Assembly (NCBI GenBank): GCA_030841085.1 | Contig: JAVEDP010000007.1 | Span: 15,129 to 79,128, forward strand | Length of the DNA: 64,000 bases | DNA from: Pyrinomonadaceae bacterium | GTDB taxonomy: Bacteria; Acidobacteriota; Blastocatellia; Pyrinomonadales; Pyrinomonadaceae | Direction: 5' to 3' | Part shown: piece after piece, positions 3,936-60,677 of the stretch | Layout: each line of letters opens with the position of its first letter | Position numbering within the stretch: the stretch's first letter is position 1 | Position numbers and translations under genes: made by a program | Notes under the pieces: model-generated | Database searches by the model: none | The model's input: only the letters and a program-made list of their open reading frames with translations | What the model was told of the DNA's origin: nothing

Positions 3936-3970
3936 TCAGAAGTCAGAAGTCAGAAGTCAGAAGTCAGAAC
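3936..3970. repeat. Tandem heptamer array (TCAGAAG)x5 abutting the alaS start codon
   Basis: Five consecutive 7-nt units. On the alaS mRNA strand this reads (CUGACUU)x4-CUGAUUU-AUG. GTCAG/CTGAC blocks at 3975-4010 give a weak partner arm. Confidence 0.9.
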
Positions 3971-4100
3971 AAACAACTGACAACTGGCTACGGACAACTG
4001 ACGAAGGTTGAGTTTAGCATGCGGTTTGAAGGTGAGCGAAACATGACGTAGTCAAATCAATTAAAGAGTGCCAATTGAAAAAACCTGGAAGCCGCGCTAA

Positions 4101-4234
4101 ACAAATACAGAACGGGGAGCGGTAGCGACCTGGTTCGAAGGACAGCCTACAACTGTGAAGAGAACGAGAATCCTTCGTTGGTCGACGCTCGCGCTCCTTG
4201 ACCCGGTCGCTACCGCTCCCGGTTCTGTCTTTGT
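4101..4234. repeat. Long hairpin element, GAGCGGTAGCGACC-core family (copy 1)
   Basis: Arms 4101-4130 and 4205-4234 are about 90% complementary, with a 74-nt loop. The core is shared with 48365-48480. It lies between recX and alaS. Confidence 0.85.
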
Positions 4235-4291
4235 GTAATGTGAGATCGAGGGTACCCAGCCTTTACCATCTATGAACCCTCCGAAGGCCAA

Positions 4292-4846
4292 TCACTCATC
4301 GAGGTCAGTCCTTGAGATGCGACGTACCTTGTCGCTGACTAATTCAAACGCAAAGCCCTGGCGCAGCAAATGATCAAACAGACTTTTGGCTTCGAGACGC
4401 GTTTTCGGCTGGCCGCGCAAACGAATGCGCTTCTCAATGGCGCGATCTATCAGTTCTTCTTCCGGCGTTTCCGCATAGACCAAATTGAGCGCTTCGTCGG
4501 CGACTGCGCCCGGGACTTGTTTCATTTTCAAATCCTGCTGCAGACGGCGGCGGCCAATCGGGCGCTGCTTCACTTTCAACGATGCGTAGCTCACAGCGTA
4601 ACGCTCGTCGTCGAGGTAGCCATACTCCTTCAATCTTGCAATAACCTCATCAACAAGTTGGTCGGTAACGCCCTGGCGCTCCAAAAGCCGCTCGCGCAAT
4701 TCGGCGATTGAGCGCGGTTTGGCGGCGAGCAGTTTTGCCGCGCGTTGAAAGGTGCGGGAGCGAATTCGCTCGGGACTGGCGACGCTCGTCTCGTCCGGCT
4801 GTGTATTCTTCGTCGTTCGTCTGCGCACAAAAGCATTTAAGCACAA
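4292..4846 (-). CDS. recX: Recombination regulator RecX
   Basis: Three-repeat helical RecX-like sequence (KPRSIAELRERLLERQ..., YLDDERYA..., RAIEKRIRLRG...). It sits directly upstream of alaS, as in many bacteria. The exact start is uncertain. Confidence 0.8.
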   Translation of the reverse strand: MCLNAFVRRRTTKNTQPDETSVASPERIRSRTFQRAAKLLAAKPRSIAELRERLLERQGVTDQLVDEVIARLKEYGYLDDERYAVSYASLKVKQRPIGRRRLQQDLKMKQVPGAVADEALNLVYAETPEEELIDRAIEKRIRLRGQPKTRLEAKSLFDHLLRQGFAFELVSDKVRRISRTDLDE

Positions 4847-4964
4847 AGCAAAGAGCGGGGGTAAACCACCCTTCCCAACCGCGAGCTGTTCAAGCTTTGC
4901 GGAACTGGCCCCGCTCTGTGGCCGCTACATCGCTAAACTTCCACCAGCAATCTACAATGCGTTT

Positions 4965-5912
4965 ATGGATGGCGCTTTGATTATCGACAAGCCCGTTGAT
5001 TTGACTTCGCATGACGTTGTTGCACGTGCGCGACATCTACTCAGGGAGAGGCGTGTGGGCCATACCGGGACGCTCGATCCATTTGCGACGGGCGTGCTGG
5101 TGCTACTCATCGGTCGCGCAACGCGGCTGGCCCAGTTTCTCAGCGGGCTTGAAAAGGAATACGAGGCGGTGATTCGGCTGGGATACGCAACTGACACGGG
5201 CGACGTAACTGGTAAACCCCTAGTCAATTCGGAAGCGCTCACCGTTCCGGCATCGGAAGTGAAATTCGGCGAGGCTGAGATAGAAGCGGCGCTGGCAAGC
5301 TTGCGTGGAGAAATCGATCAAGTGCCGCCGATGTATTCGGCGAAGAAGCAACAAGGTCGAAAACTTTACGAACTGGCGCGGCGCGGTGAGGAAGTTGAAA
5401 GACAACCCGTGCGCGTTGCGATCCGAAAGTTTGAAACGAATCGAGCGAAGGGCGGTTTGCTGAAGAACAATCTTGACGGCACGTACGATCTGGATGTGCT
5501 GGTCGCGTGCTCCGCCGGCACTTATGTGCGAACGCTGGCGGAAGATTTCGGCAAGCGTTTGGGCATCGGCGCGCACGTGGCGGAACTGCGGCGCACGCGC
5601 GTGGGCAGCTTCAAGATTGAAAGTGCGTCAAGTTTGGACCGGTTGCAAGAAAGTGTCGCCGAGGAGTCGCTCGGACGCGTGCTGCTGACGCCTGACGCAG
5701 TGCTTGAACACCTGCCTGCCATCGATTTATCAGATGACGATGTGCGAAAGACACGTAATGGCGTGAATATCTCAGTGCAACAAACAAGCTGGACCAACGG
5801 TGACCAAGTAAGGCTGCGTGATGAGCATGGCCACCTCATTGCCGTCGCAACATTTGAAGCGGAGAAGAGTTCATTGCGCCCACGCGTGGTGTTGGCCCAC
5901 AACGAAATATGA
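4965..5912 (+). CDS. truB: tRNA pseudouridine(55) synthase TruB
   Basis: GHTGTLDPFATGVL catalytic-Asp motif plus a PUA-like C-terminus. I chose the in-frame ATG at 4965 (MDGALIIDKP). The ORF-track extension from 4752 overlaps recX and looks non-coding. Confidence 0.93.
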   Translation: MDGALIIDKPVDLTSHDVVARARHLLRERRVGHTGTLDPFATGVLVLLIGRATRLAQFLSGLEKEYEAVIRLGYATDTGDVTGKPLVNSEALTVPASEVKFGEAEIEAALASLRGEIDQVPPMYSAKKQQGRKLYELARRGEEVERQPVRVAIRKFETNRAKGGLLKNNLDGTYDLDVLVACSAGTYVRTLAEDFGKRLGIGAHVAELRRTRVGSFKIESASSLDRLQESVAEESLGRVLLTPDAVLEHLPAIDLSDDDVRKTRNGVNISVQQTSWTNGDQVRLRDEHGHLIAVATFEAEKSSLRPRVVLAHNEI

Positions 5913-6853
5913 AAAAGCGTTATTGGTTAGGCGCGGTATCGGCGTTAGCCGGCGCGGCAGTGGCGGCTAAACTCTGGCTGCGCCCGCCCGATGTCGAGTG
6001 GGATTCGAATCGCGAGGCTGTATTTAACGCCGACTACTCTCGCTTTGCGGAAGTTGATGGGGTGACAGTGCACTATCAGGAAGCAGGCGAGACAAACGCG
6101 CCGCCGCTGCTGCTGATTCACGGTTTTGCTTCATCGAATTTAGTTTGGAGCAAGGTTCTGCTGCCACTTGCGGAGGCCGGGTTCCGAGTTATCGCGCCGG
6201 ATCTTTTGGGCTATGGATATTCCGGGAAGCCACGGCAAATGGATTACACGATCGCTTCGCAGGCAAAGATGCTGATCGGTCTGATCGAGAAACTCAGCAT
6301 CGCCCGCGTTTGTTTAATCGGCAGTTCTTACGGCGGCGCAGTCGCGGCGACGATTGCGCTCGACCATCCCGAGCTGATTGAGAAATTGGTTTTGGTGGGC
6401 GCAGTCACAAATAACAAGCCGACGCGTTACTTGCTGATGCGACTGTTTGGCTCGCCAATTATCGGCGACATACTTTCGCCGTTGGTGGTTGGGTCGCGCC
6501 GCTTGCTGCGGATGCGCATGAAACGCGTCTACGACCGGCACGCGTGGGAGCTGGATGAAAGAAGAGTGCAGGCGCGACATTTGCCGTTAGCCACGCGCGG
6601 CACGCATCGCGCAATTATTCGCACCGTCCGTCGTTGGGACGCGGAGCGAATATCCCGCGACGCGCATTTGCTGGACCAACCGACGCTGATCGTTTGGGGC
6701 GATAAAGATCGCGAAGTGCCATTGGCGGATGGTGAACGATTGCAGCAAGAGATTGCGAATTCGCGTTTGTTTGTTTTTCAAGAGTGCGGCCACTTGCCGC
6801 ATGAAGAATATCCGGCGGAGTTTACGGAGCTGGTAGCGCAATTCTGCGCTTGA
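5909..6853 (+). CDS. Alpha/beta-fold hydrolase
   Basis: HGF oxyanion motif, GSSYGG nucleophile elbow and a C-terminal GHLPHEE histidine. The start overlaps the truB stop (ATGA). Confidence 0.85.
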   Translation: MKKRYWLGAVSALAGAAVAAKLWLRPPDVEWDSNREAVFNADYSRFAEVDGVTVHYQEAGETNAPPLLLIHGFASSNLVWSKVLLPLAEAGFRVIAPDLLGYGYSGKPRQMDYTIASQAKMLIGLIEKLSIARVCLIGSSYGGAVAATIALDHPELIEKLVLVGAVTNNKPTRYLLMRLFGSPIIGDILSPLVVGSRRLLRMRMKRVYDRHAWELDERRVQARHLPLATRGTHRAIIRTVRRWDAERISRDAHLLDQPTLIVWGDKDREVPLADGERLQQEIANSRLFVFQECGHLPHEEYPAEFTELVAQFCA

Positions 6854-6959
6854 AGTTTCAGGTTTCAAGTTTCAGGTTTCAAATTTCCGGAGCTTGTTAA
6901 GAAAGTAAAAATGCTAAGCAAACGTAAACCTGAAACTTGGAACCTGAAACTTGAAACTA
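6851..6959. repeat. Heptamer-armed hairpin (GTTTCAA-type) between convergent genes
   Basis: The left arm (6851-6888) is a degenerate GTTTCAA/G array and the right arm (6924-6959) is its complement. The stop codons of both flanking genes (TGA 6851-6853, TAG 6957-6959 on the reverse strand) lie inside the arms. Confidence 0.9.
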
Positions 6960-8261
6960 ACCCATGTTCAGCGCTTTGCCGACTGATGGATCGCGGCGGA
7001 CGCGCCAGATCTTCGAGTCGAGGTAATAATGAATAAATGCGTAGCCCCAGAGAAATGAAATGCCGAGCTGCATGGCAAATGATTGTTCGCTGTTCATTCC
7101 GGCGCCATTCTTCAAACCGACGTAGCCGAGCAACTGCCGCGGGCCTTGGTAAATAATTCCGAACAAGATTCCAAAGCCGATGTAGTAAAGCAATCGGCGG
7201 CTGATTAGTTCGGCCGCGCCATATTTTTCGCGGGGATGATTTGATTCTGCGGAAGCTGTTCGCGCTCCGCGCTCATTGCGGGCGGGACGCCCGCGATCCC
7301 AGTGTGCGGCGGGCGCGACGTCAGCGGGCCCAGTAGAAATGGTCGAGCTTCGCGTGTATTTCTGATTATGAAACCAAATGAGGCGATGATATTGCAGGTT
7401 GTGATAAATCGTAAGTATCGCAACTATCGCGATCGGCTTGTTTGGCATTGGTGTTAGCAAGACAATCCAATGCATTGGAATTGCCGCCGCCAGCAGCAGA
7501 TATTTCGGAACGTTGAGGGCGTCACCGGTCATTAACCGTTGTCCCTGTCTAACTAACCAGGCAACAAAAAGAATTATCGTTCCCGCCAGCAAAACTGTCG
7601 CGAGGCCGTTCACGCCGAATCGCAAAGAGGCCGGAACGCGCGTCATGGCCTGTGGATCGCGCGCGATGAAAGCGACGAAGGGATAGTTGAAAGCGAACAA
7701 AAGCAGGAGGCGGTCAAGCGCGTTATCTATAGGCGCGAGGTCGTTGTTCTTTTTCTTGTACAGCACCATGAAACCGTAGTGCTGCTTGACCAGATGGTAA
7801 TAAGCCCAGAGCGCCGCGAGAAAGAAAAATACCAGGCCCAGCCCCGCGAATACCATGATTGGACCAACCACAAAAAAAAGCAGCGAGCTCCACAACAAGC
7901 GCCCGCGGCTGCGGCGTTCTACGCGATCAAAATAGGTGCGCGAGAAAGTTCCAAAGACGTGTGGCGCATCGATCAGGATGGCCCACAGCGCCACCATCGG
8001 AATCAATGGCAGCACGCCGGCAACGTACAAAATGAGCAGAGCGTAACTGGAAGCAACGGAGCCGATGAACCAGACGAGATCGTCCCGCGCAGAGATGATC
8101 CAGCGTAGCGAGACGACTTCGGCACGGGCTTGAGGGAAAACTTCAGCAGTGGCCAAGGGGAAATAACCTAATGGAAATTCAGCGAGAGGGAGAGAATTGT
8201 AGCACCAGCCGAGGACGGCTGAAACATAACCTGCATAAAAAGTGAATCGAGCAGTCCGCAC
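6957..8261 (-). CDS. Multi-pass membrane protein of unknown function
   Basis: 434-aa ORF with many hydrophobic helices, a HNLQYHRLIWFH motif and one hydrophilic Arg/Ala-rich insert. The GTG start is uncertain and lies inside a repeat arm. Confidence 0.6.
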   Translation of the reverse strand: MRTARFTFYAGYVSAVLGWCYNSLPLAEFPLGYFPLATAEVFPQARAEVVSLRWIISARDDLVWFIGSVASSYALLILYVAGVLPLIPMVALWAILIDAPHVFGTFSRTYFDRVERRSRGRLLWSSLLFFVVGPIMVFAGLGLVFFFLAALWAYYHLVKQHYGFMVLYKKKNNDLAPIDNALDRLLLLFAFNYPFVAFIARDPQAMTRVPASLRFGVNGLATVLLAGTIILFVAWLVRQGQRLMTGDALNVPKYLLLAAAIPMHWIVLLTPMPNKPIAIVAILTIYHNLQYHRLIWFHNQKYTRSSTISTGPADVAPAAHWDRGRPARNERGARTASAESNHPREKYGAAELISRRLLYYIGFGILFGIIYQGPRQLLGYVGLKNGAGMNSEQSFAMQLGISFLWGYAFIHYYLDSKIWRVRRDPSVGKALNMG

Positions 8262-8392
8262 TTAGCGGACGGCTGACAATAGCCCAGCAGTTCACTGCTG
8301 GGATAATCGGAAGAAGGAAATTGAGTCCGTCGCGAATGGCTCTTTTCCCAGCGATAAATCGCTGGGCTATTGTCAGCCGTCTAAGCGCGGAC
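8254..8392. repeat. Nested-palindrome hairpin element
   Basis: The outer arms (GTCCGCACTTAGCGGACGGCTGACAATAGC and its complement) each carry an inner mini-hairpin (CCCAGCAG-TTCA-CTGCTGGG; CCCAGCGA-TAAA-TCGCTGGG). It lies between divergent genes. Confidence 0.85.
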
Positions 8393-8453
8393 TCAGCGGA
8401 AACACTTTTTGTGCGAAGCTCGGAAGCATCGCCATCTGGTAAACTACGCCTCC

Positions 8454-14112: not shown

Positions 14113-14147
14113 ACGCGGCGTTCTTAATTGAGCGCCGCGTTATTTTT
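14113..14147 (+). terminator. Rho-independent terminator
   Basis: Stem ACGCGGCG / CGCCGCGT with a 12-nt loop, followed by TATTTTT. Confidence 0.75.
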
Positions 14148-14193
14148 GTCCGATAAGCTTCAGCTTGTCGTAACGCGACGATAAAACTAAAGG
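14148..14193. repeat. GTCCGATAAGCTT family (copy 2, appears truncated or interrupted)
   Basis: GTCCGATAAGCTTCAGCTTGTCGTAACG... matches 9823-9850 closely. The closing TTATCGGAC-like end is missing here, but CGACAAGTTAATCGGAC occurs at 14497-14513. Confidence 0.6.
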
Positions 14194-14217
14194 AGGTTCT
14201 GAATAAATTAGTGAAAA

Positions 14218-14470
14218 CTTTGTACTAAGCCCGCGAAGCGCGGCGATAGCATAAAGCCTGGGGTGGAGCGGAGCGAAACCCCAGGATCGTTCAACAAAAA
14301 AGGAAGAGCCCACGAAGTGGGTGACGGTCGTTTAGGGACAGTAAATCGTAGGGTTTACGCTATCGCACGCTCCGCGCGCTTGGGGGCTTTTTACTATCGG
14401 TGTCCTGGGGTTCCGCTTCGCTACACCCCAGGCTTTACGCTGACGCCGCGCTTCGCGGGCTTAATACAAG
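14218..14470. mobile_element. MITE-like element with terminal inverted repeats of about 69 nt, no coding capacity
   Basis: The left end (14218-14286) and the reverse complement of the right end (14403-14470) align at roughly 85-90% by eye. Each end contains two mini-hairpins (CCGCG-AAG-CGCGG and CCTGGGG..CCCCAGG). I saw no target-site duplication. Confidence 0.5.
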
Positions 14471-14592
14471 TTGTTCATTGCCTGAATCAGATCTTCCGAC
14501 AAGTTAATCGGACACTTCCGATGATCTGATTCGCCACTAACTGCCGCTTACGTCCGCTTTAACGTTTCCTGGTTTTAATCTAATCTGTCGGA

Positions 14593-15915: not shown

Positions 15916-15986
15916 TGCAAGCTTTTAATTTGATTTTGGATGTAACGCAAACTGTAAGTTCGCGCTTCTTGCTTCTGTTTTTGAGA

Positions 15987-16073
15987 TGTAAAGCAAACTG
16001 TTAGTTTGCGATGGCTCGTTGCCATCCAACTTAAATTCTCCGCAGCCACCGCAAACTGACAGTTTGCTTTACA
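15987..16073. repeat. Nested-palindrome element, TGTAAAGCAAACTGTTAGTTTGCG family (copy 1)
   Basis: The 24-nt arms (15987-16010 and 16050-16073) are complementary. Each arm is itself a 7-3-7 palindrome (GCAAACT-GTT-AGTTTGC). A degenerate extra half-site lies at 15941-15964. Confidence 0.9.
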
Positions 16074-19932: not shown

Positions 19933-20175
19933 TTAATCGGCTGCGTTTTGAGCAATGCGGCGTTCGTGGGCCAACTCGCGCAGGGCAACTGACAGGTCGC
20001 GAGCCGCGCGTTCGATGCGATCGGCGACAGCTTCGAGCGAATCGACCTCAGCCGATTGGATAGCGACGACCGAGAGCGCCTCCTCGATCAGTTCAATCAC
20101 GCGCGTTGCTTCTGTTTCAGTTTCCTGCTCGCCGCGCGTCAGCGGGCGAACAACAGTCTTTGGTTCCATGCTCAA
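19933..20175 (-). CDS. Hypothetical small helical protein
   Basis: 80-aa acidic, helix-prone ORF 45 nt upstream of pckG on the same strand. I recognise no motif. Confidence 0.35.
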   Translation of the reverse strand: MSMEPKTVVRPLTRGEQETETEATRVIELIEEALSVVAIQSAEVDSLEAVADRIERAARDLSVALRELAHERRIAQNAAD

Positions 20176-20266
20176 TATGAATCGCCCTTAATTAGATTCG
20201 TTAAGCTAAACTCTTACAACACTGAGGCCATTGGAAGCAAGCGGGCCAAGAGTACGGGAAAGATCA

Positions 20267-20914
20267 ATGAACCCAGCGCCAACACGACATGCATTTACCG
20301 CAAAAGAGTGGCAACTTATCCAGTCGCTGAATACACCGGCGCGCGTCCAGCGTTTCTTCAGTTCAATGCCATATAACTGGGAAAAGAACGGCGGCACGAT
20401 GCGGTCCTTTCGCGAAGTTGTAAAGCGCAACGAGGCCCACTGTTTAGAGGCGGCGTTAGCGGCGGCGGTAATTTTGGAGCAACATGGCTATCCGCCCCTG
20501 TTGCTCGATATTGAATCAGTGGATTTGTTGGACCACGTGATTTTTGTTTTTCAGCACGATGGGTTGTGGGGCTCTATCGCCCGTTCACGCGATATTGGAC
20601 TGCACGGGCGCAAGCCGTTGTTCCGGTCGCTGCGCGATTTGACGTGGAGTTATTTCGAACCGTACGTGGATTTCAGCGGCCGCATTAAAGGTTATGGGCT
20701 GGCGAATCTTTACGATTTGGGAAATTATGATTGGCGGTTCTCGGCCAGGAACATGTCGAAGATTGAGGACTATTTGCGCGAGCTGCCGCACAAGAAAATT
20801 CATTCGTCAGATAAGAGATACGAGAAACTGCTGGCGCACTATCATCGCTATAAGAAGCGTTATCCGGAACGCTCGCCGGCGTATTACGAGAACCGCAATC
20901 AGTGGATGAGGTGA
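20267..20914 (+). CDS. Transglutaminase-like (Cys-His-Asp) domain protein, function unknown
   Basis: AHCLEAALAAAVIL (candidate nucleophile Cys) followed by LLDHVIFVF (His/Asp). I chose the ATG at 20267; the ORF track opens at TTG 20231. Confidence 0.55.
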   Translation: MNPAPTRHAFTAKEWQLIQSLNTPARVQRFFSSMPYNWEKNGGTMRSFREVVKRNEAHCLEAALAAAVILEQHGYPPLLLDIESVDLLDHVIFVFQHDGLWGSIARSRDIGLHGRKPLFRSLRDLTWSYFEPYVDFSGRIKGYGLANLYDLGNYDWRFSARNMSKIEDYLRELPHKKIHSSDKRYEKLLAHYHRYKKRYPERSPAYYENRNQWMR

Positions 20915-20915
20915 A

Positions 20916-21030
20916 GCGAGTTTCGAGTTCCGAGTTTCGAGTTTCGAGTTCGGAGAAACCAGGCTGTTTTGCTGCGGAATCGAACTCAAAGCCTAAAAAC
21001 TCGGAACTCGGAACTAGAAAGTCGAAACTA
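20916..21030. repeat. Heptamer-armed hairpin (GTTTCGA-type) between convergent genes
   Basis: The left arm (20916-20953) is a degenerate GAGTTTC array. The right arm (20981-21030) is its complement and includes the stop codon of the reverse-strand gene. Confidence 0.9.
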
Positions 21031-22035
21031 ACTTTCCTTGACTACCAAACCTTCGCGCGAAAATTTCCAGTCAAGAATTTCAGCGCCCTTTTCCGCGCCG
21101 AGCGCGCGCTCGACATCCGCTTTGCGCCCCTCGGCACACAGGAATGCAATGCAGCCGCCCCCGCCGGCGCCGCAAACTTTCGCAGCTTCCGCGCCGTTAG
21201 CCAAAGCCGTCTGGACCAGATGGTCCATCTGCGGCGTCGTCACTCCCGGCGCCAGCCGTTTTCGGTTCGGATAAGCAGCAAGCATGGTCTCGCGCACTTC
21301 ATCCCAATCATCAGCCAGCAGCGCCTGACGCATTCGCAGCGCAGAATCACGTATGGCGTCGAAGATCTCGAAGAGTTCGGCGTCGCCGTCGATATGCTTC
21401 TTGAAAATTTCCCAGTTGTTCGTTCCTGACAGTCGCGGCTCTCCGGTGTAGCAGATGGCAATACGGTCCTGGATTTTCTTTTCGTCAACTTCCAGTTTTT
21501 CACGCTCGATGCCATCCGCGCGGAAGTGCACACATGAAGTCGAGCCAAACTGGGCCGAGTAGTAATCCTGAAAACCAGCAGGAACGCGAATCACAGTCGT
21601 CTCGATATTCGCGGCGATAGAAATGAACTTCCGCGCTTGATAACGATCTCCGACGAGCCGGTTCAGCGCGCCAATGCAGGCGATTGCCAGCGCCGACGAA
21701 CCGGCCAGACCAGCCCCCGCAGGCGCTTCGCTGTTGGCGATCAGATGGAAACCAGTGGTTGGTTTGAAGAAATGGACCAGCTTGGAAATTAATTCCAGAC
21801 GCTCCTCGCGCGCCAGGTCTTCGATTGCCGCGAGATTAGTTTCAAACGCCATCTTTCGGTCGCGCGACTCGAGCACAATCTGGCCCTCATCGCGCGTCTC
21901 TATCGAGCAATGAGCACGCAGGGAAGTAGCGAAGTTGACCGTGGCCGCGCCGGGGTGAAAGAGATAGATGGGCCAGATGTCGATGGTGCCGCCGGCAAGA
22001 TCGACGCGAGTTGGGGCGGATGACTCAATTAGCAC
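21028..22035 (-). CDS. GHMP-family sugar kinase
   Basis: GHMP motif 2 (PAGAGLAGSSALAIA) and motif 3 (KVCGAGGGGC). GTG start. Confidence 0.85.
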   Translation of the reverse strand: MLIESSAPTRVDLAGGTIDIWPIYLFHPGAATVNFATSLRAHCSIETRDEGQIVLESRDRKMAFETNLAAIEDLAREERLELISKLVHFFKPTTGFHLIANSEAPAGAGLAGSSALAIACIGALNRLVGDRYQARKFISIAANIETTVIRVPAGFQDYYSAQFGSTSCVHFRADGIEREKLEVDEKKIQDRIAICYTGEPRLSGTNNWEIFKKHIDGDAELFEIFDAIRDSALRMRQALLADDWDEVRETMLAAYPNRKRLAPGVTTPQMDHLVQTALANGAEAAKVCGAGGGGCIAFLCAEGRKADVERALGAEKGAEILDWKFSREGLVVKES

Positions 22036-22077
22036 GTTTTATCTTAGTTGTCCTTAAAGAAGTTGTTAAGACCCACG

Positions 22078-22220
22078 ATTTGCCATTTACCATTTTCCAT
22101 TTCTCATTTGTCATTGCAACCGCCGCAAGCGGCTCGGTTATGGCAGCGAGTTGAGAAAAAAAAAGCGACCTCTAATGAATTTGGATTCCAAGGGAAAATG
22201 GTAAATGGGAAATCTCAAAT
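22078..22220. repeat. Heptamer-armed hairpin (CCATTTG-type), copy 1
   Basis: The left arm (22078-22115) is a degenerate CCATTT(N) array and the right arm (22192-22220) is its complement. The loop holds a small GC hairpin and an A9 run. Confidence 0.85.
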
Positions 22221-22237
22221 TCTTTGGCCAGTCGGAA

Positions 22238-22969
22238 TTACTTCGGTTCACCGTCTTTGGCCGCCGCCCGCTTTTTTTCTTCAGCCTGCCGCGACTGTTT
22301 GAATGGAATGTGCTCCTGAAACTCCTGCTTCAGACCTTGCAGTTTTTCCTGCGCGGCTTGTTCCAGTTCCTGCAGACGTTCAGGATCCGCTTCTTCCACT
22401 TTTGGCGATAACCAAAAGCGCTCGGCCAAATAAAATCCGGCAATGCCGACCACCACAATTACCAGCAGAACTTTTCCGAGGCGTTGAAAGTCACCGATGA
22501 CGCTGATTACCGCACCACTAAAAAAATAACCAGCGCCGCTGAGAACCAATACCCACGCAAAACAGCTGGCCGCTGACAGTACCACAAATCGCAGGTAGGG
22601 CATGCGACCAACGCCGTGAAATATGCACGAAGCCCAGCGCAGTCCGTAAATGTATTTCGAAAGAAAGATCGAGAGTCCGCCGAAGTTGTTTGTCAGGCGT
22701 TCCATGCGCGGCTTGGCGGCGCGATAGAACCGCAGATCGCGAACACCTTTGCGAAACTCGCGGCCTGTCAAGTATGCAATGTTATCGCTGACCGTACCGC
22801 CGAGCGTGCCCGCCAGCAGTACCGAAGCAAAACTGTGATCGCCGAAAAAATAACTGTGGGCCAGGACACCGGCAAGCAGGAGCGTAAGGTCGCCCTCGAT
22901 CATTACCAGAATGAAGACGGCGTAGAGGCCGTAACGACCGATCAAGTCGGTAAGAAAATCGAGGTGCAT
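22238..22969 (-). CDS. DedA-family membrane protein with a charged C-terminal tail
   Basis: SNARE-associated/DedA-like N-terminal 190 aa, then a Lys/Glu/Gln-rich tail. Confidence 0.8.
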   Translation of the reverse strand: MHLDFLTDLIGRYGLYAVFILVMIEGDLTLLLAGVLAHSYFFGDHSFASVLLAGTLGGTVSDNIAYLTGREFRKGVRDLRFYRAAKPRMERLTNNFGGLSIFLSKYIYGLRWASCIFHGVGRMPYLRFVVLSAASCFAWVLVLSGAGYFFSGAVISVIGDFQRLGKVLLVIVVVGIAGFYLAERFWLSPKVEEADPERLQELEQAAQEKLQGLKQEFQEHIPFKQSRQAEEKKRAAAKDGEPK

Positions 22970-22979
22970 GTTTGGAAAA

Positions 22980-23054: not shown

Positions 23055-23067
23055 TACTGACTGCCTT

Positions 23068-43310: not shown

Positions 43311-43443
43311 TATCCGCAGATTACGCAGATTTCACAGATTAGAATTAAACAGATCATTCAAATTGATAGCGTGGGTTGTAAGAGGCAATCAGGTGAAGCA
43401 ATGGTTCATTTTGCTTCTGCGTAATCTGTGTAATCTGCGGATA
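43311..43443. repeat. TATCCGCAGATTACGCAGATTTCACAGATT-family hairpin (copy 2)
   Basis: The left arm (43311-43340) is identical to 1030-1059. The right arm (43417-43443) is complementary. It lies between convergent genes. Confidence 0.85.
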
Positions 43444-44531: not shown

Positions 44532-45005
44532 ATGTTTAAAGACCTGGCCGGCGCAATTTGGCGGCGAACGCCTGCAATACTAAAAAGATGGGGAATGCGT
44601 TTTACGCAGACGCGTTTCACTGTGACCGCCGGGGCTATTATTACGAACAGCGAAGGACGCGTGTTGCTGCTGCACCATCGTTTTCGTCCCGGGTCGGGTT
44701 GGGGAATACCGGGCGGCTTCATCAAACGAGGCGAACAACCCGACCAGGCGTTGCGTCGCGAGTTGCGCGAAGAAGTCGGTTTAGAAATCGAGGACCTGAC
44801 TTTGTTCAAAACTCGCGCGTTCAGAAAAGCGCGCCAGGTCGAGATCATTTTCCGCTGCCGCGCGCGAGGCGAAACCGAACAACTAAGTTTCGAGATCAAA
44901 CGGCTGGCCTGGTTTGACCCGCAGGAGTTGCCGAAAGCGTTGCCGCCGGACCAAGCCGAGTTAATCAAGTTAGCGGTCGCCGATGGAGCAGAAACGCATG
45001 ATTGA
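44532..45005 (+). CDS. NUDIX hydrolase
   Basis: Exact Nudix box fit: GFIKRGEQPDQALRRELREEVGL (G-x5-E-x7-REUxEExGU). Confidence 0.9.
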   Translation: MFKDLAGAIWRRTPAILKRWGMRFTQTRFTVTAGAIITNSEGRVLLLHHRFRPGSGWGIPGGFIKRGEQPDQALRRELREEVGLEIEDLTLFKTRAFRKARQVEIIFRCRARGETEQLSFEIKRLAWFDPQELPKALPPDQAELIKLAVADGAETHD

Positions 45006-45027
45006 TGTATGCTGTGCAACGAATAAA

Positions 45028-45140
45028 AGTACTGAGTACTGAGTACTGAGTGCTGAGTACTGAGTACTGAGTAAGTGAGGCGCACCGATTCAAGTTGCAT
45101 TAACTCACACTCAGTACTCAGTACTCAGTACTCAGCACTC
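45028..45140. repeat. Heptamer-armed hairpin (GTACTGA-type)
   Basis: The left arm (45028-45079) holds about 7 units of AGTACTG. The right arm (45104-45140) is its complement. Confidence 0.9.
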
Positions 45141-45163
45141 CACACTTTGGGCCGGAGAATAAA

Positions 45164-45772
45164 ATGGTTGATCTGATTCCGTCGTCTGACACCGTAATGC
45201 AGATGCTGAAGCGCACCGGCGCTTTTCGCGAAGGCCACTTCGTTTATCCCAACGGCAAGCACTCGCCGCATTATTTTCAGATGCCGCTCGCGTTTCGTTA
45301 CTACGATACTGCGCGTGTGTTGGCCGTTGCGCTGAGCAGAAAATTTCGCATCGATCGCGATGTCTCCAGCCAGTTGCCAAAGGTGTCGATCATCAGCCCC
45401 AGCTCCGGTGGGATTCCGGTAGCCTTTGGCGTGCGCGATGCATTGAGTGCGGAGCAGATTTACTGGGCCGAGCAGGAAGGCGGCAAGCGTATGTTCCGGC
45501 AGTACATCAATAAGGGCGAAGTGAACCCGTGCATCATCGTTGACGATATTATTCGCAGCGGCGCGGCGATCGAAGAGACGGTGAAGTTGGTGGAATCACT
45601 GGGCTCAAACATTATTGGCTGCGGCGCAATCGTGCGGTTTGACTCAGCGCCGGATACCGTACAAGGCGTGCCCATTAAGTCGTTGGTCACGTTTAATGCG
45701 CACATGTACGACAGCGGCGATGCCTGCTCCGATTGCGTGAAGGGCGCACCGGTTGAGAATGTTCGGTTCTAA
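45164..45772 (+). CDS. Phosphoribosyltransferase (orotate PRT-like)
   Basis: PRPP-binding loop CIIVDDIIRSGAAI, about 200 aa. Substrate not determinable from sequence alone. Confidence 0.7.
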   Translation: MVDLIPSSDTVMQMLKRTGAFREGHFVYPNGKHSPHYFQMPLAFRYYDTARVLAVALSRKFRIDRDVSSQLPKVSIISPSSGGIPVAFGVRDALSAEQIYWAEQEGGKRMFRQYINKGEVNPCIIVDDIIRSGAAIEETVKLVESLGSNIIGCGAIVRFDSAPDTVQGVPIKSLVTFNAHMYDSGDACSDCVKGAPVENVRF

Positions 45773-45799
45773 ATCTTGAGGGCGCTAAGTTGAAAGCAA

Positions 45800-45960
45800 A
45801 GAAATTTACCATTTGCCATTTACCATTTGTCATTGCCGAAAACTGCAACGCACTTAGCAAACGAGGTTTACCTTCATACTAAGCTCGTACCTAAGAGCCG
45901 TTCGCGTTGTCCTTGGTTGAAATGACAAATGAGAAATGGTAAATGGCAAATGGTAAATCT
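45800..45960. repeat. Heptamer-armed hairpin (CCATTTG-type), copy 3, between convergent genes
   Basis: The left arm (45800-45834) and right arm (45920-45960) are complementary, with an 85-nt loop. Confidence 0.9.
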
Positions 45961-45983
45961 CTTTTCTTCTCAACCGTCCAGTT

Positions 45984-46598
45984 CTAGATCTCACGTCTGT
46001 TAGACAGCGCCTTATCCATCGTTACTTCGTCAACGTATTCCAAATCGCTGCCCACCGGCATGCCCATCGCAATGCGCGTGACGAGCAGGCCCAGAGGTTT
46101 TAATAAGCGGCCGATGTAGTTTGCGGTTGCTTCGCCTTCGGTGGTTGGGTTCGTTGCCAGAATGACTTCGCTGACTTCCACGCCGTCATTGTTTTCCGGT
46201 TTCAGACGCGGCAACAGGTTGGCGAGATGGAGTTCGTTTGGACCAATGTGACGCATAGGCGAGAGGCTGCCGTGAAGTACGTGATAGACACCTTTGAAGC
46301 TGCGGGTTTTTTCGACCGCGACCATGCTGTGCGGTTCTTCGACGACGCAAATGACGGAATGATCGCGCGAGGTAGAGGCGCAGATGCGGCAGGGATCGAT
46401 TTCGGTGAGGTTATTGCAGACCGAGCAAAGGACGATGCGTTGCTTTACATCGCGCACCGCCGTCAGCAAACGATCGAGCTCGTTTTCCGGCGTGCGCATG
46501 ATGTGAAAAGCGAGCCGCTGCGCGGACTTGTGGCCGATGCCGGGCAAGCGTTTTAGCTCATCGATTAGTTTAGTGACGGGTTCGGCGTATTCTAACAT
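45984..46598 (-). CDS. recR: Recombination protein RecR
   Basis: HhH motif (LPGIGHKSAQRLA), C4 zinc finger (CSVCNNLTEIDPCRIC) and a Toprim domain. Confidence 0.96.
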   Translation of the reverse strand: MLEYAEPVTKLIDELKRLPGIGHKSAQRLAFHIMRTPENELDRLLTAVRDVKQRIVLCSVCNNLTEIDPCRICASTSRDHSVICVVEEPHSMVAVEKTRSFKGVYHVLHGSLSPMRHIGPNELHLANLLPRLKPENNDGVEVSEVILATNPTTEGEATANYIGRLLKPLGLLVTRIAMGMPVGSDLEYVDEVTMDKALSNRREI

Positions 46599-46696
46599 TT
46601 GGTTTTGGTCTTAGGTCTTTGGGCTTTGGTCTTTGAGAAAAAACCGCGAGTCCCACCAAAGGCCCAAGACCAAAGACCAAAGTCCAAAGACCGAAA
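46599..46696. repeat. Heptamer-armed hairpin (GGTCTTT-type), copy 2, ybaB-recR gap
   Basis: The left arm (46599-46635) starts immediately next to the recR start codon. The right arm (46657-46696) is its complement. Confidence 0.9.
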
Positions 46697-48993: not shown

Positions 48994-50250
48994 TTGTCTC
49001 AAACACTCGCTGTTATTAACTGTTCACAACTTGTAACTCTTTCCGGGCCTGCTCGTCCGCGAGTCGGCCCGGAGCTGTGTCAACTTTCGATCGTCGCAGA
49101 CGGTGGCATGCTCATACGCGACGGTCGGATCGCGACGGTTGGCACGCGTTCTGAAGTCGAGAAGCTGATTGATAACGACTGCGAGGTTGTTGATGCAGGC
49201 GGTCGCATAGTTTTGCCAGGCTTTGTCGATGCGCACGCGCATCCTGTGTTCGCCGGGACGCGTGCAAATGAATTCGAAGAACGATCTCAAGGTGCTAGCT
49301 ATCAGGAGATAGCAGCGCGCGGCGGCGGCATCCAGTCAACCGTAAACGCGACGCGCGCTGCGACGCTCGACGGTTTAGTCGCTTCGGGAAAGCGTTACGC
49401 GGAATGGTTCATCCGCAGCGGCACCACTACCGTCGAAGCAAAATCCGGATATGGCTTGACGGTTGAAGATGAATTAAAGACTCTGCGCGCGATTAAGCGG
49501 CTTGACGAGGAAACGCCGCTTCGTTATGTGCCGACGTTTCTCGGCGCGCATTCGATTCCCGCCGAATACAAATCGCGTCGCGAAGAATATGTTTCGCTGA
49601 TCATTGACGAGATGTTGCCGCGTATTGCGCAGGAGGAACTGGCCGAATACTGCGATGTCTTTTGCGAAGCAAACGTTTTCACGACCGACGAATCGCGCCG
49701 GATTCTTTCCGCCGCACGCGCTCAGGGGCTGGGACTGAGAATCCACGCCGATCAGTTATCGTTGTCAGGCGGAGCGCAATTGGCGGCCGAACTGGGTGCC
49801 ACCACGGCCGATCATCTTGAATACACGGATACGGCAGGAATCGCGGCGCTGAAGTCAGCAGGTGTGCAGCCAGTGCTTTTGCCCGGTTCGGTTTATGCGC
49901 TTGGCTCGAGCCATTATCCGGCAGCACGCGAGATGATTGCTGCCGGTCTTGCCGTGGTGCTCGCTACAGATTTCAATCCCGGCTCATCGCCGACGCCGTC
50001 GATGCCGATGATTCTTTCGCTTGCTTCGACGCAGATGAAGATGACGCCGGCGGAATCGATCACTGCGGCGACTATTAACGCGGCCTACAGTTTGAATCGC
50101 GGCGACAAAATCGGCTCACTCGAAGCAGGGAAGGTTGCGGACTTTGTGATTTACGACTGCTACGATTATCGCGACCTCGCTTATTTTTTTGGGATCGAAC
50201 ATCCGTGGCGGGTTTATACAGGCGCGCGCCAGGTATTCCGGCGGTTGTAA
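48994..50250 (+). CDS. hutI: Imidazolonepropionase
   Basis: [40 protein letters not shown] and DFNPGSSP motifs, colinear with HutI. Confidence 0.93.
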
Positions 50251-50345
50251 AGCAAACTGTTAGTTTGCGGACGAGGCATTGAAACTTCGTGCCGTAAGCC
50301 AACGGATTGCTCGCCAACGGCCGCAAACTAACAGTTTGCTTTACG
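50246..50345. repeat. TGTAAAGCAAACTGTTAGTTTGCG-family element (copy 3)
   Basis: Arms 50246-50270 (overlapping the hutI stop) and 50321-50345. The 50-nt loop is about four fifths identical to the loop of copy 4. Confidence 0.9.
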
Positions 50346-50657: not shown

Positions 50658-50757
50658 CGTAAAGCAAACTGTTAGTTTGCGGTCGAGGCATTGAAGCTTC
50701 GTGCCCGTAGGCTAACGGGTTGCTACCAACGTCCGCAAACTAACAGTTTGCTTTACG
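50658..50757. repeat. TGTAAAGCAAACTGTTAGTTTGCG-family element (copy 4)
   Basis: Arms 50659-50682 and 50733-50757. A degenerate half-site lies at 50637-50659, as in copy 1. Confidence 0.9.
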
Positions 50758-58142: not shown

Positions 58143-58296
58143 GGCATTTTCTTAGAACGAAAAGCATTAACTCATAAGACCGAGAACTTTACGCTGAAAT
58201 GTCATGGGCACATCAGGCGGCAAAGCCGAACTGACGTGGCCCATAGCATTTGAGGCAAAGCTCTTCTTTAGGTTTTCTTAATCGCCTGCTGCCTAT

Positions 58297-58974
58297 TTAT
58301 GGAACAGGCGAAGACGCCGGTGAGGCTTGTTCCGACGGCATAACGCGCGAAGGGTCAGGCTTGTCGGCAGAGGTATGCACGTGAATGGCTTTCCAATCTT
58401 TTCCTACTCTTTTGAAAACCAAAGTCATCCGCCCGGTCGCAGTTTCCGGAGTTCCTTTGTAAGTTTGGGATTGCGTCCACAGACAAGTCACGATCGCACC
58501 ATCACGGCCGAGCATGGTTATTGAAACATCGCGCACATCGAGTTTGACTTCCTTCACATCGGCGTAGGAACTCTCGCGGTTTTTGCGCATCTGGTCCCAA
58601 CCGCGCGTTACGGTGCCGTTGTTATTGAACAAAAGCAGGCGCGGGGAATTCAGGTAGACACTGGCTACGGCTTTCGGGTCAGCATGACGAATTCCGTTTA
58701 CGAGCGCGTTGAATGCGGCGATGACACTTTGCGAACCCGGCGTTTCGTTGCCGGTAATTTTAGGTTTCGTTTCGCTGCGACGAGCCGCCGGCGCTTTCGC
58801 AGCGGGTTGTTGCACATCGGTACTCGGCGTCGCTCGTGTTGGAGTTCTGCCAGGAACGGGCGTTCCAGTCGTGCGCGGACGAATCGAGGGCGCGGAATTT
58901 GAGTTCTGGGCCAACGCGGCGGAAGTTGCCAGAGGCAAAACCAAAATGAGAACGAGTGTGAAACTACCTTTCAT
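58297..58974 (-). CDS. Secreted SnoaL-like/DUF4440 (NTF2-fold) protein with a Pro/Thr/Ala-rich linker
   Basis: Signal peptide, a low-complexity linker, then an NTF2-like domain ending GKDWKAIHVHTS. Confidence 0.7.
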   Translation of the reverse strand: MKGSFTLVLILVLPLATSAALAQNSNSAPSIRPRTTGTPVPGRTPTRATPSTDVQQPAAKAPAARRSETKPKITGNETPGSQSVIAAFNALVNGIRHADPKAVASVYLNSPRLLLFNNNGTVTRGWDQMRKNRESSYADVKEVKLDVRDVSITMLGRDGAIVTCLWTQSQTYKGTPETATGRMTLVFKRVGKDWKAIHVHTSADKPDPSRVMPSEQASPASSPVP

Positions 58975-59028
58975 AATTGCTCCTATTTAACCATGCTTCG
59001 CTGGGAATCAAATGCGCGACTTCGTAAA

Positions 59029-60549
59029 CTACACATCGCCGACCGCGTTCATCGCGTCAAACCATGGTACTCCACTGCGCAATCTTTCAACAGAACGTTT
59101 TTGACCGAGAATGGCGAACACTTCAAACATCGAAGGTCCGACCGCCTGACCAGTCAACATCGTTCGCGAACCATTGATTAGCAGGCCTGCCTTCACGCCG
59201 CTCTCTTCAGCGAAACCACGAAGCGCCGCTTCAGCGGTGTCGTGATTGAACGGATCCAATTTCTCCAGGTGGTCAGCAAGTCCCGGCAACAGCTCTTTGA
59301 GTTTCGGTTCCTTCCGCAGATTTTTGTTGACCGCCGCTTCGTCGAAATCAAAGTCGTCGGAAAAATAAGCGCGACCCTGTGCCGAGAAATCCTTCAGCGT
59401 GTGAAAGCGTTGGCGAATAACCTGGACGGCGCTGACAAACCAGTCGTGGTCGTCTTCGTCATATTCTTCTCGCCACAGTTTGTTCGCGCGCAACTCCGCT
59501 TTGATCATTGGCAGCAAATCATCTACCGGCATAGTGCGGATGTATTCCGCGTTCATCCAAAGCGCTTTTTCATCCGTCCAGTGGCGCGGATCGTTCTCCT
59601 GAAAATTGAAAACCGCGGGCGAGCGGTGAATGTGTTCGAGCGAAAACTCCGCAATCAATTCGTCAACAGATAAGACTTCTTTGCCTTCCGCGGGCGACCA
59701 TCCCAACAGCGCCAGGAAATTGCGAAAGGCCGCAGGCACAAAACCACGATCGCGATAAGTGGTTAACGAAACTACTTCGCCGTGTTTGCGTTTGGAAAGC
59801 TTTCCTTTGTTCGGCGCCAGGATCAGCGGCAAGTGCGCAAAGTGAGGCAGGCGCGCGCCCAGCGCCTGATACAGCAGAATCTGCTTGTGCGTATTGGTCA
59901 GATGATCCTGGCCGCGGATGACGTGTGTGATGCCCATCTCGATATCGTCGATTACAACCGAGAGGTTATAAAGCGGGTGGCCATCGGAACGCAGCAGGAC
60001 CAGGTCTTCAATTTCGGAGTACTCGCGTTCTTGTGGTCCATAAACCATATCGTCAAAGTGCGTCTTGCCATCGCTCGCAATTTTCAAACGTACGGCAAAT
60101 GGTTCGCCGGCCGCAGCGCGCTTGTCTGACTCTTCGCCGGCCAAATCGCGGAACGGATTGCTGCGATGGTCCACGCCTTCGGCTGCGTGCGCGCGTGCGC
60201 GATCGGCGATGCCTTGTTTGACGGTCGCATCGTTGCGTTCGGCTTTCGGTGTGAAGTCGCGATAGGCCTTTCCTTCTGCGACCAGTTTGTTAGCGGCAGC
60301 TCGATGCTTGTCGGCATTCGCGGATTGAAAAACTAATTCTTCGTCGTAAGACAATCCCAACCATTCAAGACCGTCGATAATTGAGCGCGTGGATTCGTCC
60401 GTCGAGCGCTGCAGATCCGTGTCTTCAATTCGCAGCAGAAATTTGCCGCCGGTTTTTTTCGCGTAAAGCCAGTTGAACAGCGCCGAGCGCGCCGCGCCGA
60501 TGTGCAGATAGCCGGTTGGAGATGGAGCGAAACGTACGCGAACGGACAT
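59029..60549 (-). CDS. gltX: Glutamate--tRNA ligase
   Basis: Class I HIGH-type motif (PSPTGYLHIGAAR) and the KMSKS variant KLSKRK. At 506 aa it is colinear with GluRS. Confidence 0.95.
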   Translation of the reverse strand: MSVRVRFAPSPTGYLHIGAARSALFNWLYAKKTGGKFLLRIEDTDLQRSTDESTRSIIDGLEWLGLSYDEELVFQSANADKHRAAANKLVAEGKAYRDFTPKAERNDATVKQGIADRARAHAAEGVDHRSNPFRDLAGEESDKRAAAGEPFAVRLKIASDGKTHFDDMVYGPQEREYSEIEDLVLLRSDGHPLYNLSVVIDDIEMGITHVIRGQDHLTNTHKQILLYQALGARLPHFAHLPLILAPNKGKLSKRKHGEVVSLTTYRDRGFVPAAFRNFLALLGWSPAEGKEVLSVDELIAEFSLEHIHRSPAVFNFQENDPRHWTDEKALWMNAEYIRTMPVDDLLPMIKAELRANKLWREEYDEDDHDWFVSAVQVIRQRFHTLKDFSAQGRAYFSDDFDFDEAAVNKNLRKEPKLKELLPGLADHLEKLDPFNHDTAEAALRGFAEESGVKAGLLINGSRTMLTGQAVGPSMFEVFAILGQKRSVERLRSGVPWFDAMNAVGDV

Positions 60550-60557
60550 AAGAATAA

Positions 60558-60677
60558 GAGGTCAGAGATCAGAAGTCAGAGGTCAGTAAAAGAGGTCAGA
60601 GGTCGGAAGTCAAAGGTCAGTTAAAAAGGAACTCGAACGCTTCTTACTGACCTCTGACCGCTGACTTCTGACCTCTG
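60558..60677. repeat. Heptamer-armed hairpin (GAGGTCA/AGAAGTC-type) between tRNA-Ser and gltX
   Basis: The left arm (60558-60622) holds about 9 degenerate units and the right arm (60644-60677) is its complement. It shares the 12-mer CTGACTTCTGAT (mRNA sense) with the alaS leader. Confidence 0.9.

Follow-up and report, generated by a model that had tools for sequence, protein, structure and literature searches.

Inverted pairs of heptanucleotide tandem arrays form intergenic hairpins that change in place in the Pyrinomonadaceae

Tandem repeats of a heptanucleotide were recognised in cyanobacteria around 1990 and have been known from other bacteria since 2007, and to our knowledge nobody has established the reason for the period of 7 or the function of the arrays. 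In this study, we analysed a 64-kb stretch of DNA from a soil bacterium of the Pyrinomonadaceae (Acidobacteriota), hereafter the window, in which long hairpins between genes have arms that are themselves tandem arrays of a 7-nt unit. The closest described system is that of Xanthomonas, where each of two genomes holds 70–75 convergent pairs of GGGAATC arrays, whose positions are conserved although their lengths vary (Rehm 2015, PMC4692102). An earlier note on the window, whose author knew of no inverted-paired version of such repeats, was mistaken on this point, the Xanthomonas pairs being one that is published. More generally, heptamers are over-represented among bacterial simple repeats, possibly owing to polymerase slippage (Mrazek 2007 as cited by Rehm 2015, PMC4692102), and in Beggiatoaceae, cyanobacteria and Bacteroidetes the heptamer TAACTGA occurs as direct repeats 5′ of start codons (MacGregor 2015, PMC4679880).

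Heptamer-array hairpins in the window and in related genomes

An ungapped inverted-repeat finder (arms of at least 20 nt, at least 75% complementary, spacer of at most 200 nt) located long inverted repeats at 25 loci in about 23 gaps of the window, every one of them intergenic or at a gene edge, and none in the ten block-shuffles of the window that served as the null. Eleven of these loci have heptamer-array arms, two have nonamer-array arms, four belong to a separate family resembling repetitive extragenic palindromic (REP) sequences and eight are of other kinds. About half of the long intergenic stem-loops here have arms of tandem 7-nt units, with units of 9 nt in two cases and of 8 nt in some relatives. 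The robust heptamer-arm hairpins are those at 6853, 20919, 22077, 22979, 24675, 32363, 39750, 45034, 45794, 46603 and 60557, and two weaker elements lie at 23531–23615 and 3927–4002. The earlier note had spoken of long inverted repeats in more than 25 gaps and of heptamer arms in at least 14 elements; the inverted repeats are real and the first figure is approximate, while the second is slightly generous, 12–13 being a fair count (11 robust, two weaker). The repeats were found as described at all the positions that it had listed, by Tandem Repeats Finder (TRF), by the sequences themselves and by the inverted-repeat search.

TRF returned 78 rows for the window, among which the commonest periods were 7 and its double, 14, and many of these rows were paired, with reverse-complementary consensus units and tens of bases between them. 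A lag-p self-match scan gave 24 arrays of period 7 and 29 of period 14, compared with 0–5 arrays for each of the other periods from 3 to 18 and about 0.2 in shuffles. The arrays paired by the inverted-repeat tool have arms of 28–53 nt that are 77–96% complementary, and the heptamer hairpins have stems of 25–60 bp and loops of 13–115 nt. RNA folding, scored against 200 dinucleotide shuffles per element, gave z-scores of −4.1 to −10.2 for nine of the ten heptamer hairpins tested and extended to −10.8 when both nonamer hairpins were included, none of the 200 shuffles being as stable. Pairs crossing the split point of minimum free energy structures did not discriminate as a hairpin detector (42 of 47 gaps passed), and the ungapped finder was used instead.

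The element sequences are 100% identical in independent assemblies from other samples (L002, L085 and L086, the L-numbers being labels for related loci or strains), which indicates that the hairpins are not an assembly artefact. Two contigs of one JGI metagenome, Ga0467039_0000052 and Ga0467039_0000026, match window positions 20068–26529 and 35164–55772 exactly, so that the window assembly is more contiguous than that one. An Rfam search at the gathering score returned tRNA-Ser only and no family for the hairpins, whose sub-threshold matches were to unrelated miRNA-precursor models, i.e., to a ‘generic long hairpin’.

To place the window among its relatives, 80 loci found with the ActB protein in public genomes (1.36 Mb) were scanned in the same way. 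Nearly all are labelled as Pyrinomonadaceae, Blastocatellia or Acidobacteriota metagenome-assembled genomes, with 62–91% amino-acid identity. They contain 397 arrays of period 7, 319 of period 14, 66 of period 8 and at most 34 of any other period. The excess of 7-nt units and the folding advantage over dinucleotide shuffles, both of which the earlier note had put forward as checks, are thus present, periods 7 and 14 dominating the window and its relatives alike. Array density ranges from 0 to 7.5 per 10 kb and drops with distance from the lineage of the window (Spearman rho 0.45), and 64% of the arrays fall in noncoding DNA, which makes up about 15% of the total. When an inverted partner was defined by at least 12 of 14 matches within 170 nt, 59% of 416 arrays had one, compared with 15% that had a direct partner and 1% in the reversed-sequence null. 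Among 421 arrays there are 108 canonical units; ACTGCTC (35), AAGGCAG (27) and AAACAGC (19) recur, many of these counts coming from orthologous sites and not being independent. Period-8 arrays, with units ACGCGGAG, ACGCGGGG or ACACGGAG, are confined to one subclade (L038, L039, L041, L046–L048, L053, L054, L064, L073 and others), where those in the actD/actE and actC/actD gaps are arranged as inverted pairs whose stems are predicted at −120 to −159 kcal/mol.

Heptamer arrays are present in 14 of about 47 window gaps of at least 40 nt, and a paired array in only 16–21% of those gaps of the relatives that contain a gene 3′ end; with none in some lineages, the description of these elements as near-default gene punctuation was too strong. 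These data demonstrate that heptamer hairpins are a trait running through the Pyrinomonadaceae and extend inverted heptamer pairs to a new phylum. Our search of the literature found no report linking heptamer repeats to Acidobacteriota.

Inheritance at fixed gaps and change of the repeat unit

Comparison with L003, whose DNA is 93% identical to that of the window, revealed that the element at 45028 has about three units fewer in its left arm and one fewer in its right arm around an identical loop, and that the element at 45800 has a left arm one unit longer around a nearly identical loop. These differences are slippage by whole units, unequal between the arms, and the earlier suggestion that slippage is a source of array change is here seen directly between strains.

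Across species, the position of a hairpin is kept while its unit is replaced. The ybaB-recR gap holds a hairpin in nine of nine genomes with identical YbaB, made from four unit families: GGTCTTT in four genomes, GTACTTT in two, GCCAATT/GCCGATT in one and CGAGTTT in two. Likewise, the hairpin is kept between the NUDIX gene and the phosphoribosyltransferase-like (PRT) gene, where the unit is AGTACTG, or AGTAATG/AGTCATG in L091 and L095, and the loops are unrelated; the recR/PRT gap behaves as these two, with a fixed position and a changing unit. In the gaps of the ActB locus, the hairpin and a related unit are often retained across much of the family (e.g., NNNCAGT 3′ of usp and AAAGACC 5′ of usp). 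Conservation of position with turnover of the unit had been predicted beforehand, and it was observed at the ybaB-recR, NUDIX/PRT, recR/PRT and ActB-locus gaps.

Watson–Crick pairing holds at 88% of the arm positions of 47 elements in the best ungapped register. In the outer 34 bp of the recR/PRT hairpin, five to six pairs differ on both sides between two lineages, and 31–34 of the 34 are still paired in each. For the hairpin downstream of usp, arms from the same species gave −1.185 kcal/nt and arms combined across species gave −0.957 kcal/nt, none of 20,000 permutations being as good (p < 5e-5). The arms co-evolve, complementarity being kept through changes on both sides. Loops are unrelated among elements with the same unit and between species, so that the stem is the maintained part. 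The elements are resident structures inherited at fixed gaps and not copies of a mobile element. With units that differ by locus and unrelated loops in elements of the same unit, the view taken in the earlier note that this is not one dispersed mobile sequence is upheld. A single mobile family was ruled out by alignments of same-unit elements.

Placement at gene ends and possible roles

The elements are set closely against genes. Their arms start 0–35 nt past stop codons and overlap the stop codon in several cases (6853 and 24675), and in co-directional gaps they stop 4–18 nt before the next start codon (4 nt for recR, 7 nt for gltX and 9 nt for the VTT-domain gene). Family-wide, paired arrays per kb of gap number 1.08 in convergent, 0.93 in co-directional and 0.45 in divergent gaps. 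The genes of the window include alaS, that for a GTP-dependent phosphoenolpyruvate carboxykinase, murA, gltX, an alternative complex III operon (with a fused ActB of 1134 residues) and a cytochrome oxidase operon, and in the cluster of the last two a long inverted repeat of some kind stands at nearly every junction. The individual elements are as follows, n standing for the number of units in an array.

6850–6958: heptamer hairpin, arms (AAGTTTC/AGGTTTC)n and (GAAACTT/GAAACCT)n; inverted repeat 93% complementary, z −7.6
20914–21034: heptamer hairpin, arms (CGAGTTT)n and (AACTCGG)n, between convergent genes 20231–20914 (+) and GHMP kinase 21028–22035 (−); z −5.75
22077–22214: heptamer hairpin, arms (ATTTGCC/ATTTACC)n and (GGTAAAT...)n, between the minus-strand VTT-domain gene 22238–22969 and GHMP kinase 21028–22035
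22979–23055: heptamer hairpin, arms (AGTGAGC/AGTGTGC)n and (ACTGCAC...)n, 3′ of usp 23068–23529 (−); z −7.75
24675–24792: heptamer hairpin, arms (AAGTTTC)n and (AAACTTG)n, between the convergent ROK-family gene 23713–24675 (+) and YdjM-like gene 24792–25442 (−); z −4.2
32363–32505: heptamer hairpin, arms (AGTGTGC)4 and (CTGCTCA)4.4, at the actD/actE junction; −78.4 kcal/mol, z −6.5
39737–39899: heptamer hairpin, arms (ATTTGCC)n and (CAAATGG)n, between coxIII 38998–39714 and coxIV 39918–40205
45026–45148: heptamer hairpin, arms (AGTACTG)6.6 and (ACTCAGT)4.6, between NUDIX gene 44532–45005 and PRT-like gene 45164–45772; −68.5 kcal/mol, z −10.2
45794–45968: heptamer hairpin, arms (ATTTACC/ATTTGCC)n, between the convergent PRT-like gene and recR 45984–46598 (−)
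46603–46696: heptamer hairpin, arms (GGTCTTT)n and (AAAGACC)n, within the ybaB-recR pair, stopping 4 nt before the recR start codon; z −4.1
60557–60677: heptamer hairpin, arms (AGAGGTC/AGAAGTC)n and (CTGACCT)n, 6 nt 3′ of tRNA-Ser 60684–60774 (−); z −8.7
23531–23615: weaker heptamer hairpin, (GGTCTTG)n and (AAGACCA)n, in a divergent gap and the 5′ untranslated region (UTR) of usp, adjoining its start codon; z −1.8
3927–4002: weaker heptamer element, adjacent arrays (AGTCAGA)6 and (ACAACTG)4 in the 5′ UTR directly 5′ of the alaS start codon; minus-strand z −4.1
38912–38989 (+): unpaired arrays, (AGGCAGT)4 at 38915–38942 and (CTTGAAA)4 at 38960–38989, between coxI and coxIII; z +1.6
28307–28383 (+): in-frame heptamer array, (AAACAGC)11, in the fused ActB gene (open reading frame [ORF] start 26564)
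34945–34996 (+): unpaired heptamer array, (CAGACGG)7.4, at the 5′ end of SCO1/SenC-like ORF 34938–35927, without an inverted partner
1030–1133: nonamer hairpin, arms being arrays of the 9-nt unit CGCAGATTA, just past the alaS stop codon and adjoining the canonical terminator 947–995; z −10.8
43311–43443: nonamer hairpin, arms nearly identical to those of 1030–1133 with an unrelated loop; z −7.0

The hairpin at 6850–6958 spans the entire convergent gap between an alpha/beta hydrolase gene, 5909–6853 (+), and the ORF 6957–8261 (−), its arms reaching both stop codons, and the arms at 24675–24792 overlap the stop codons of both flanking genes. The hairpin at 22979–23055 stops 9 nt short of the start of the VTT-domain gene, with TTTT next on the sense strand, and that at 60557–60677 stops 7 nt before the gltX start codon (60549). 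Both 39737–39899 and 45794–45968 have an A-rich sequence to their left and a T-rich one to their right, in the second case resembling a bidirectional terminator. At 3927–4002, the two different units are complementary at five of seven positions and give an imperfect hairpin. The position of the weaker hairpin 5′ of usp rests on a start codon backed by Pfam coverage from residue 3. The position of the nonamer hairpin at 1030, with the alaS stop codon on one side and a canonical terminator on the other, fits a role other than termination.

Orthologous gaps often hold related arrays. The gap at 20914–21034 has the same unit family in L006, L007 and L009 and AAACTTG in L019 and L020; the element at 22077–22214 has orthologous arrays in L006 and L007; the gap downstream of usp has a related NNNCAGT hairpin in about 15 relatives or loci; and the gap of 23531–23615 has AAAGACC arrays in L012, L016, L020, L021 and L032. 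The recR/PRT hairpin reaches −83 to −99 kcal/mol in four lineages. At the recR-downstream site, L090 (4045–5683) carries a DUF4411 gene and a peptidase M78/helix-turn-helix gene.

In the alternative complex III operon, arrays enter coding sequence. The hairpin at 32363–32505 begins 4 nt past the actD stop codon, its loop contains the actE start codon (32409 or 32421), and its right arm, on translation, codes for the hydrophobic core of the signal peptide of the lipoprotein ActE. ActE, as translated, is a monohaem cytochrome c lipoprotein with the lipobox LTVGC and the haem motif CTVCH; its gene, 32409–33143 (+), sits in a 618-nt ‘gap’ left by a longest-ORF pass. Periodic arms of 7 or 8 nt are present at the actD/actE junction in 45 of 56 relatives. 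Within the fused ActB gene, (AAACAGC)11 codes for a KQQTVNS-like repeat of seven residues in the linker that joins the molybdopterin-like half to the Fe-S half; a second heptamer array lies at 28605–28635 (+), and the length of the ActB match differs among relatives (3093–3399 nt). The arrays at 38912–38989 are unrelated to each other, and neither an inverted partner nor a hairpin was found there by partner search and folding. For the annotation of Acidobacteriota, these cases carry a warning, as arrays extend into real coding sequence (the ActE signal peptide and the ActB linker).

Other repeats and structures also occur in the window. The REP-like family, which also resembles bacterial interspersed mosaic elements (BIMEs), consists of a 23-nt self-complementary sequence, GTAAAGCAAACTGTTAGTTTGCG, with nine copies where none is expected; these stand as inverted pairs 50–75 nt apart at four intergenic sites (15942–16073, 31602–31726, 50247–50344 and 50658–50757), and exact copies occur in two more distant relatives, L031 and L043. 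Two near-threshold Rfam matches to Acido-Lenti-1 at 8264–8393, on opposite strands (33.9 and 29.7 bits; gathering score 37), together make up the inverted repeat of the divergent gap 8262–8408. The longest inverted repeat of the window, at 14160–14529, has nonperiodic arms of 127 nt that are 74% complementary, rising to 90% in a core of 67 nt, and are separated by 116 nt; it lies 3′ of the terminator 14113–14147 and 5′ of murA. A direct repeat with a 12-nt unit, (CAACAAGGTCCG)3.7 at 25453–25496, lies in the divergent gap 5′ of the alternative complex III operon and could be a binding array for a regulator. Finally, an inverted repeat at 36055–36149, with 40-nt arms that are 88% complementary and include the 9-nt repeat GTCCTTTGT twice, straddles the annotated start of coxII (36071); it is missing in almost all relatives, in which the gap there is tiny.

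Canonical terminators are real at 947–995, 14113–14147 and 62696–62731, as the earlier note had it, and its statement that most of the hairpins lack a U-tract and are not ordinary intrinsic terminators is likewise correct: the 10 nt after the stem average 3.3 T when read on the sense strand, compared with 3.0 on the antisense, and contain at least 5 T in only 15% of cases. A few elements (22979, 45794 and 39737) have T-rich tails, like long-stemmed terminators. In a consensus scan of 40 kb, terminator-like sites were no commoner than in shuffles, and because such short sites are not enriched it is chiefly the long hairpins that give gene ends their structure. Canonical terminators do not mark the ends of genes in this lineage. 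As an explanation of the hairpins, canonical intrinsic terminators were ruled out, there being no U-tract bias, stems of 25–60 bp and a site scan equal to shuffles. The arms also have a polarity: the 5′ arm is G+T-rich in 11–12 of the 12 elements of the window and, among the relatives, in 26 of 39 distinct left-arm units, and it is C-poor (G exceeds C in 25 units, C exceeds G in nine), the 3′ arm being A+C-rich and the polarity alike when read from either strand. This polarity could keep the first-transcribed arm unlike a C-rich Rho loading site, or it could fit binding by cold-shock proteins.

From placement and stability, we infer that the hairpins may act in RNA as punctuation of gene ends and operon junctions, be it as a stability barrier, as a processing site or as a pause or terminator independent of a U-tract, a proposal whose chances we judge to be evenly balanced. 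Gene ends and intercistronic junctions would be marked by a very stable hairpin that begins 0–35 nt past the stop codon and often reaches to 4–18 nt before the next start. Such a hairpin may block 3′-to-5′ exonucleases, be a place of processing, or make RNA polymerase pause or terminate although no U-tract follows, and would in this way set transcript ends and the stability of operon segments, as REP/BIME sequences may do in enterobacteria. The roles put forward in the earlier note, which were 3′ end formation, an RNase barrier and insulation, are candidates as well. Replication slippage, acting in steps of 7 or 14 nt, would lengthen and shorten the arms and switch their unit while they stay complementary. 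The 7-nt period would then be mainly a mutational signature, and selection might tolerate 7-nt repeats because repeated arms can pair in several registers and remain folded after an insertion or deletion.

A number of observations weigh against RNA punctuation. Tests for selection on one strand, as expected of RNA, gave weak or negative results: among 39 co-directional elements, folding is slightly better on the sense strand in 23 and on the antisense strand in 15 (Wilcoxon p = 0.018, with kinship not corrected for), G-U and A-C mismatches on the sense strand number 46 and 36 (p = 0.32) and give no strand-specific signal, and no enrichment of U-tracts after heptamer stems was found in sense compared with antisense flanks. 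The roughly two-fold deficit in divergent gaps is not significant by gap counts (p = 0.07 and 0.18), and the loci are phylogenetically nonindependent. Some elements lie in 5′ UTRs (usp and alaS) or extend into coding sequence (the ActE signal peptide), and some relatives have zero arrays in about 20 kb. The actD/actE junction is without excess structure in 5–6 of 56 relatives, so the hairpin is dispensable there. UBA11741, the closest sequenced relative (L088; L094, 4052–4641), has no hairpin downstream of recR and carries a toxin-antitoxin-like insertion of two genes (Unstab_antitox) at that place. Moreover, template switching between arms could preserve complementarity without selection.

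The last point leads to the possibility that the hairpins are a harmless, neutral by-product, in which a high rate of 7-nt slippage lengthens existing inverted repeats and template switching (quasi-palindrome correction) copies one arm to the other. We consider this rather unlikely, though a serious contender. Arrays also occur unpaired (38915 and 38960), within genes (the ActB linker, the ActE signal peptide and 34945) and in 5′ UTRs, all of which is tolerant sequence; there is no strand-specific G-U signal; hairpins are missing in some lineages; arms change faster than loops between close strains; density tracks relatedness (rho 0.45), as a mutational trait of a lineage would; and the heptamer excess of many bacteria has been put down to polymerase slippage (Rehm 2015, PMC4692102, citing Mrazek 2007). 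What speaks against it is the ybaB-recR gap, where the hairpin is kept in nine of nine genomes despite replacement of the unit, which needs either selection or an unexplained site-specific generator, together with the four-to-one ratio of inverted to direct partners, the two-fold shortage in divergent gaps and the precise setting of the arms against stop codons. An element acting in DNA, by extrusion of a cruciform or single-strand hairpin, as a binding or topological site (as BIMEs are for gyrase and IHF) or through an effect on replication or recombination, would account for the lack of significant strand asymmetry in pairing and for an arm polarity that is alike from either strand, and stems of 30–60 bp with loops of 13–115 nt could extrude. 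We nevertheless hold it to be improbable, as the elements show no tie to any DNA-binding protein, their placement follows stop and start codons and not genomic spacing, they are enriched where transcripts end, and long palindromes are usually selected against in DNA.

Nonautonomous mobile elements, similar to REPs or to MITEs (miniature inverted-repeat transposable elements) and with heptamer arrays as terminal inverted repeats, would explain why the unit variants follow one order in the three ATTTGCC-type elements, which also have their outer ends in common (GATTTACC...GGTAAATC), and why two nonamer hairpins 42 kb apart have nearly identical 30-nt arms, and a true REP-like family exists in the same genome. 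The first two of these observations leave a slight chance of copying between loci. The explanation by mobile elements seems to us very improbable, given the unrelated loops of same-unit elements, the lack of target-site duplications or direct repeats at the flanks inspected, the occurrence of no fewer than six unit families within 64 kb and of 108 units in the family data, orthology across species and change of units in place. Another conceivable device is a switch tuned by protein, in which the first-transcribed arm would be an array of 7-nt sites for a cold-shock-domain protein whose coating would prevent the hairpin, resulting in antitermination or in unmasking of the next start codon. The consensus of Bacillus subtilis CspB, GTCTTTG/T (Morgan 2007, PMC1904285), is literally present in GGTCTTT-type arms, CspB has been reported to bind heptamer direct repeats with one protein per heptamer (MacGregor 2015, PMC4679880), and the 5′ arms are G+T-rich and C-poor. 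Many units are not T-rich (GAGCAGT, AAACAGC and AAGGCAG), periods 8 and 9 occur, and the likeness concerns one unit family and a protein of another phylum, so we attach little probability to it. Were it true, the 7-nt period and the polarity of a keto-rich 5′ and an amino-rich 3′ arm would be design features of a concentration-dependent, genome-wide and stress-responsive punctuation. Whether selection or the copying of one arm from the other keeps the stems, and whether the period is a property of polymerase or a protein footprint, are questions that become approachable in the Pyrinomonadaceae, a rich comparative system with dozens of sequenced relatives, many units, orthologous hairpins, slippage, unit replacement and covariation.

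Comparison with known systems

REP and BIME sequences are imperfect palindromes, intergenic or within operons and often in inverted pairs, that are thought to protect upstream mRNA from 3′ exonucleases; REPs form a high-copy family of 20–40 nt with one consensus and are linked to RAYT transposases. The heptamer hairpins resemble them as inverted palindromes between genes and in operons, but have no common consensus and have periodic arms. With Rho-independent terminators they share a hairpin 3′ of the stop codon, and differ in having stems of 25–60 bp and few U-tracts. Unlike MITEs, they have no conserved internal sequence, show no direct repeats at the flanks inspected and are orthologous across species.

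The short tandemly repeated repetitive (STRR) sequences of cyanobacteria are alike in having a tandem 7-nt unit and a mostly intergenic location. Several units of their limited recurring set reportedly share a CAGT/ACTG or GGTCA core with the units found here, where a few unit families seem to recur too. The STRR sequences differ in their hosts, which are heterocystous cyanobacteria, whereas the present host is an acidobacterium in which 59% of arrays have an inverted partner. A cyanobacterial origin of the window was rejected, its relatives being Acidobacteriota and the HIP1 octamer GCGATCGC showing no enrichment. The TAACTGA repeats, too, are abundant intergenic heptamer arrays (2–6 copies) for which a post-transcriptional role has been suggested (MacGregor 2015, PMC4679880), but they comprise one unit, with one inverted set among 170, and lie just 5′ of start codons, while the arrays described here have many units, are mostly inverted and lie mainly after stop codons.

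The likeness is closest with the pairs of Xanthomonas, which are also same-unit heptamer arrays in close convergent pairs, intergenic and capable of forming a stem-loop, with a position that is kept and a length that varies. The differences are that Xanthomonas has a single G-rich unit, GGGAATC, with G-quadruplex potential, whereas there are many units here, none of those listed having the GGG-tract pattern, and that in the Pyrinomonadaceae, a family of a different phylum, one unit gives way to another at the same site, the arms co-vary and there are arrays of periods 8 and 9 as well. Inverted pairs of heptamer arrays are thus a published kind of element, to which the Acidobacteriota add many units that change in place.

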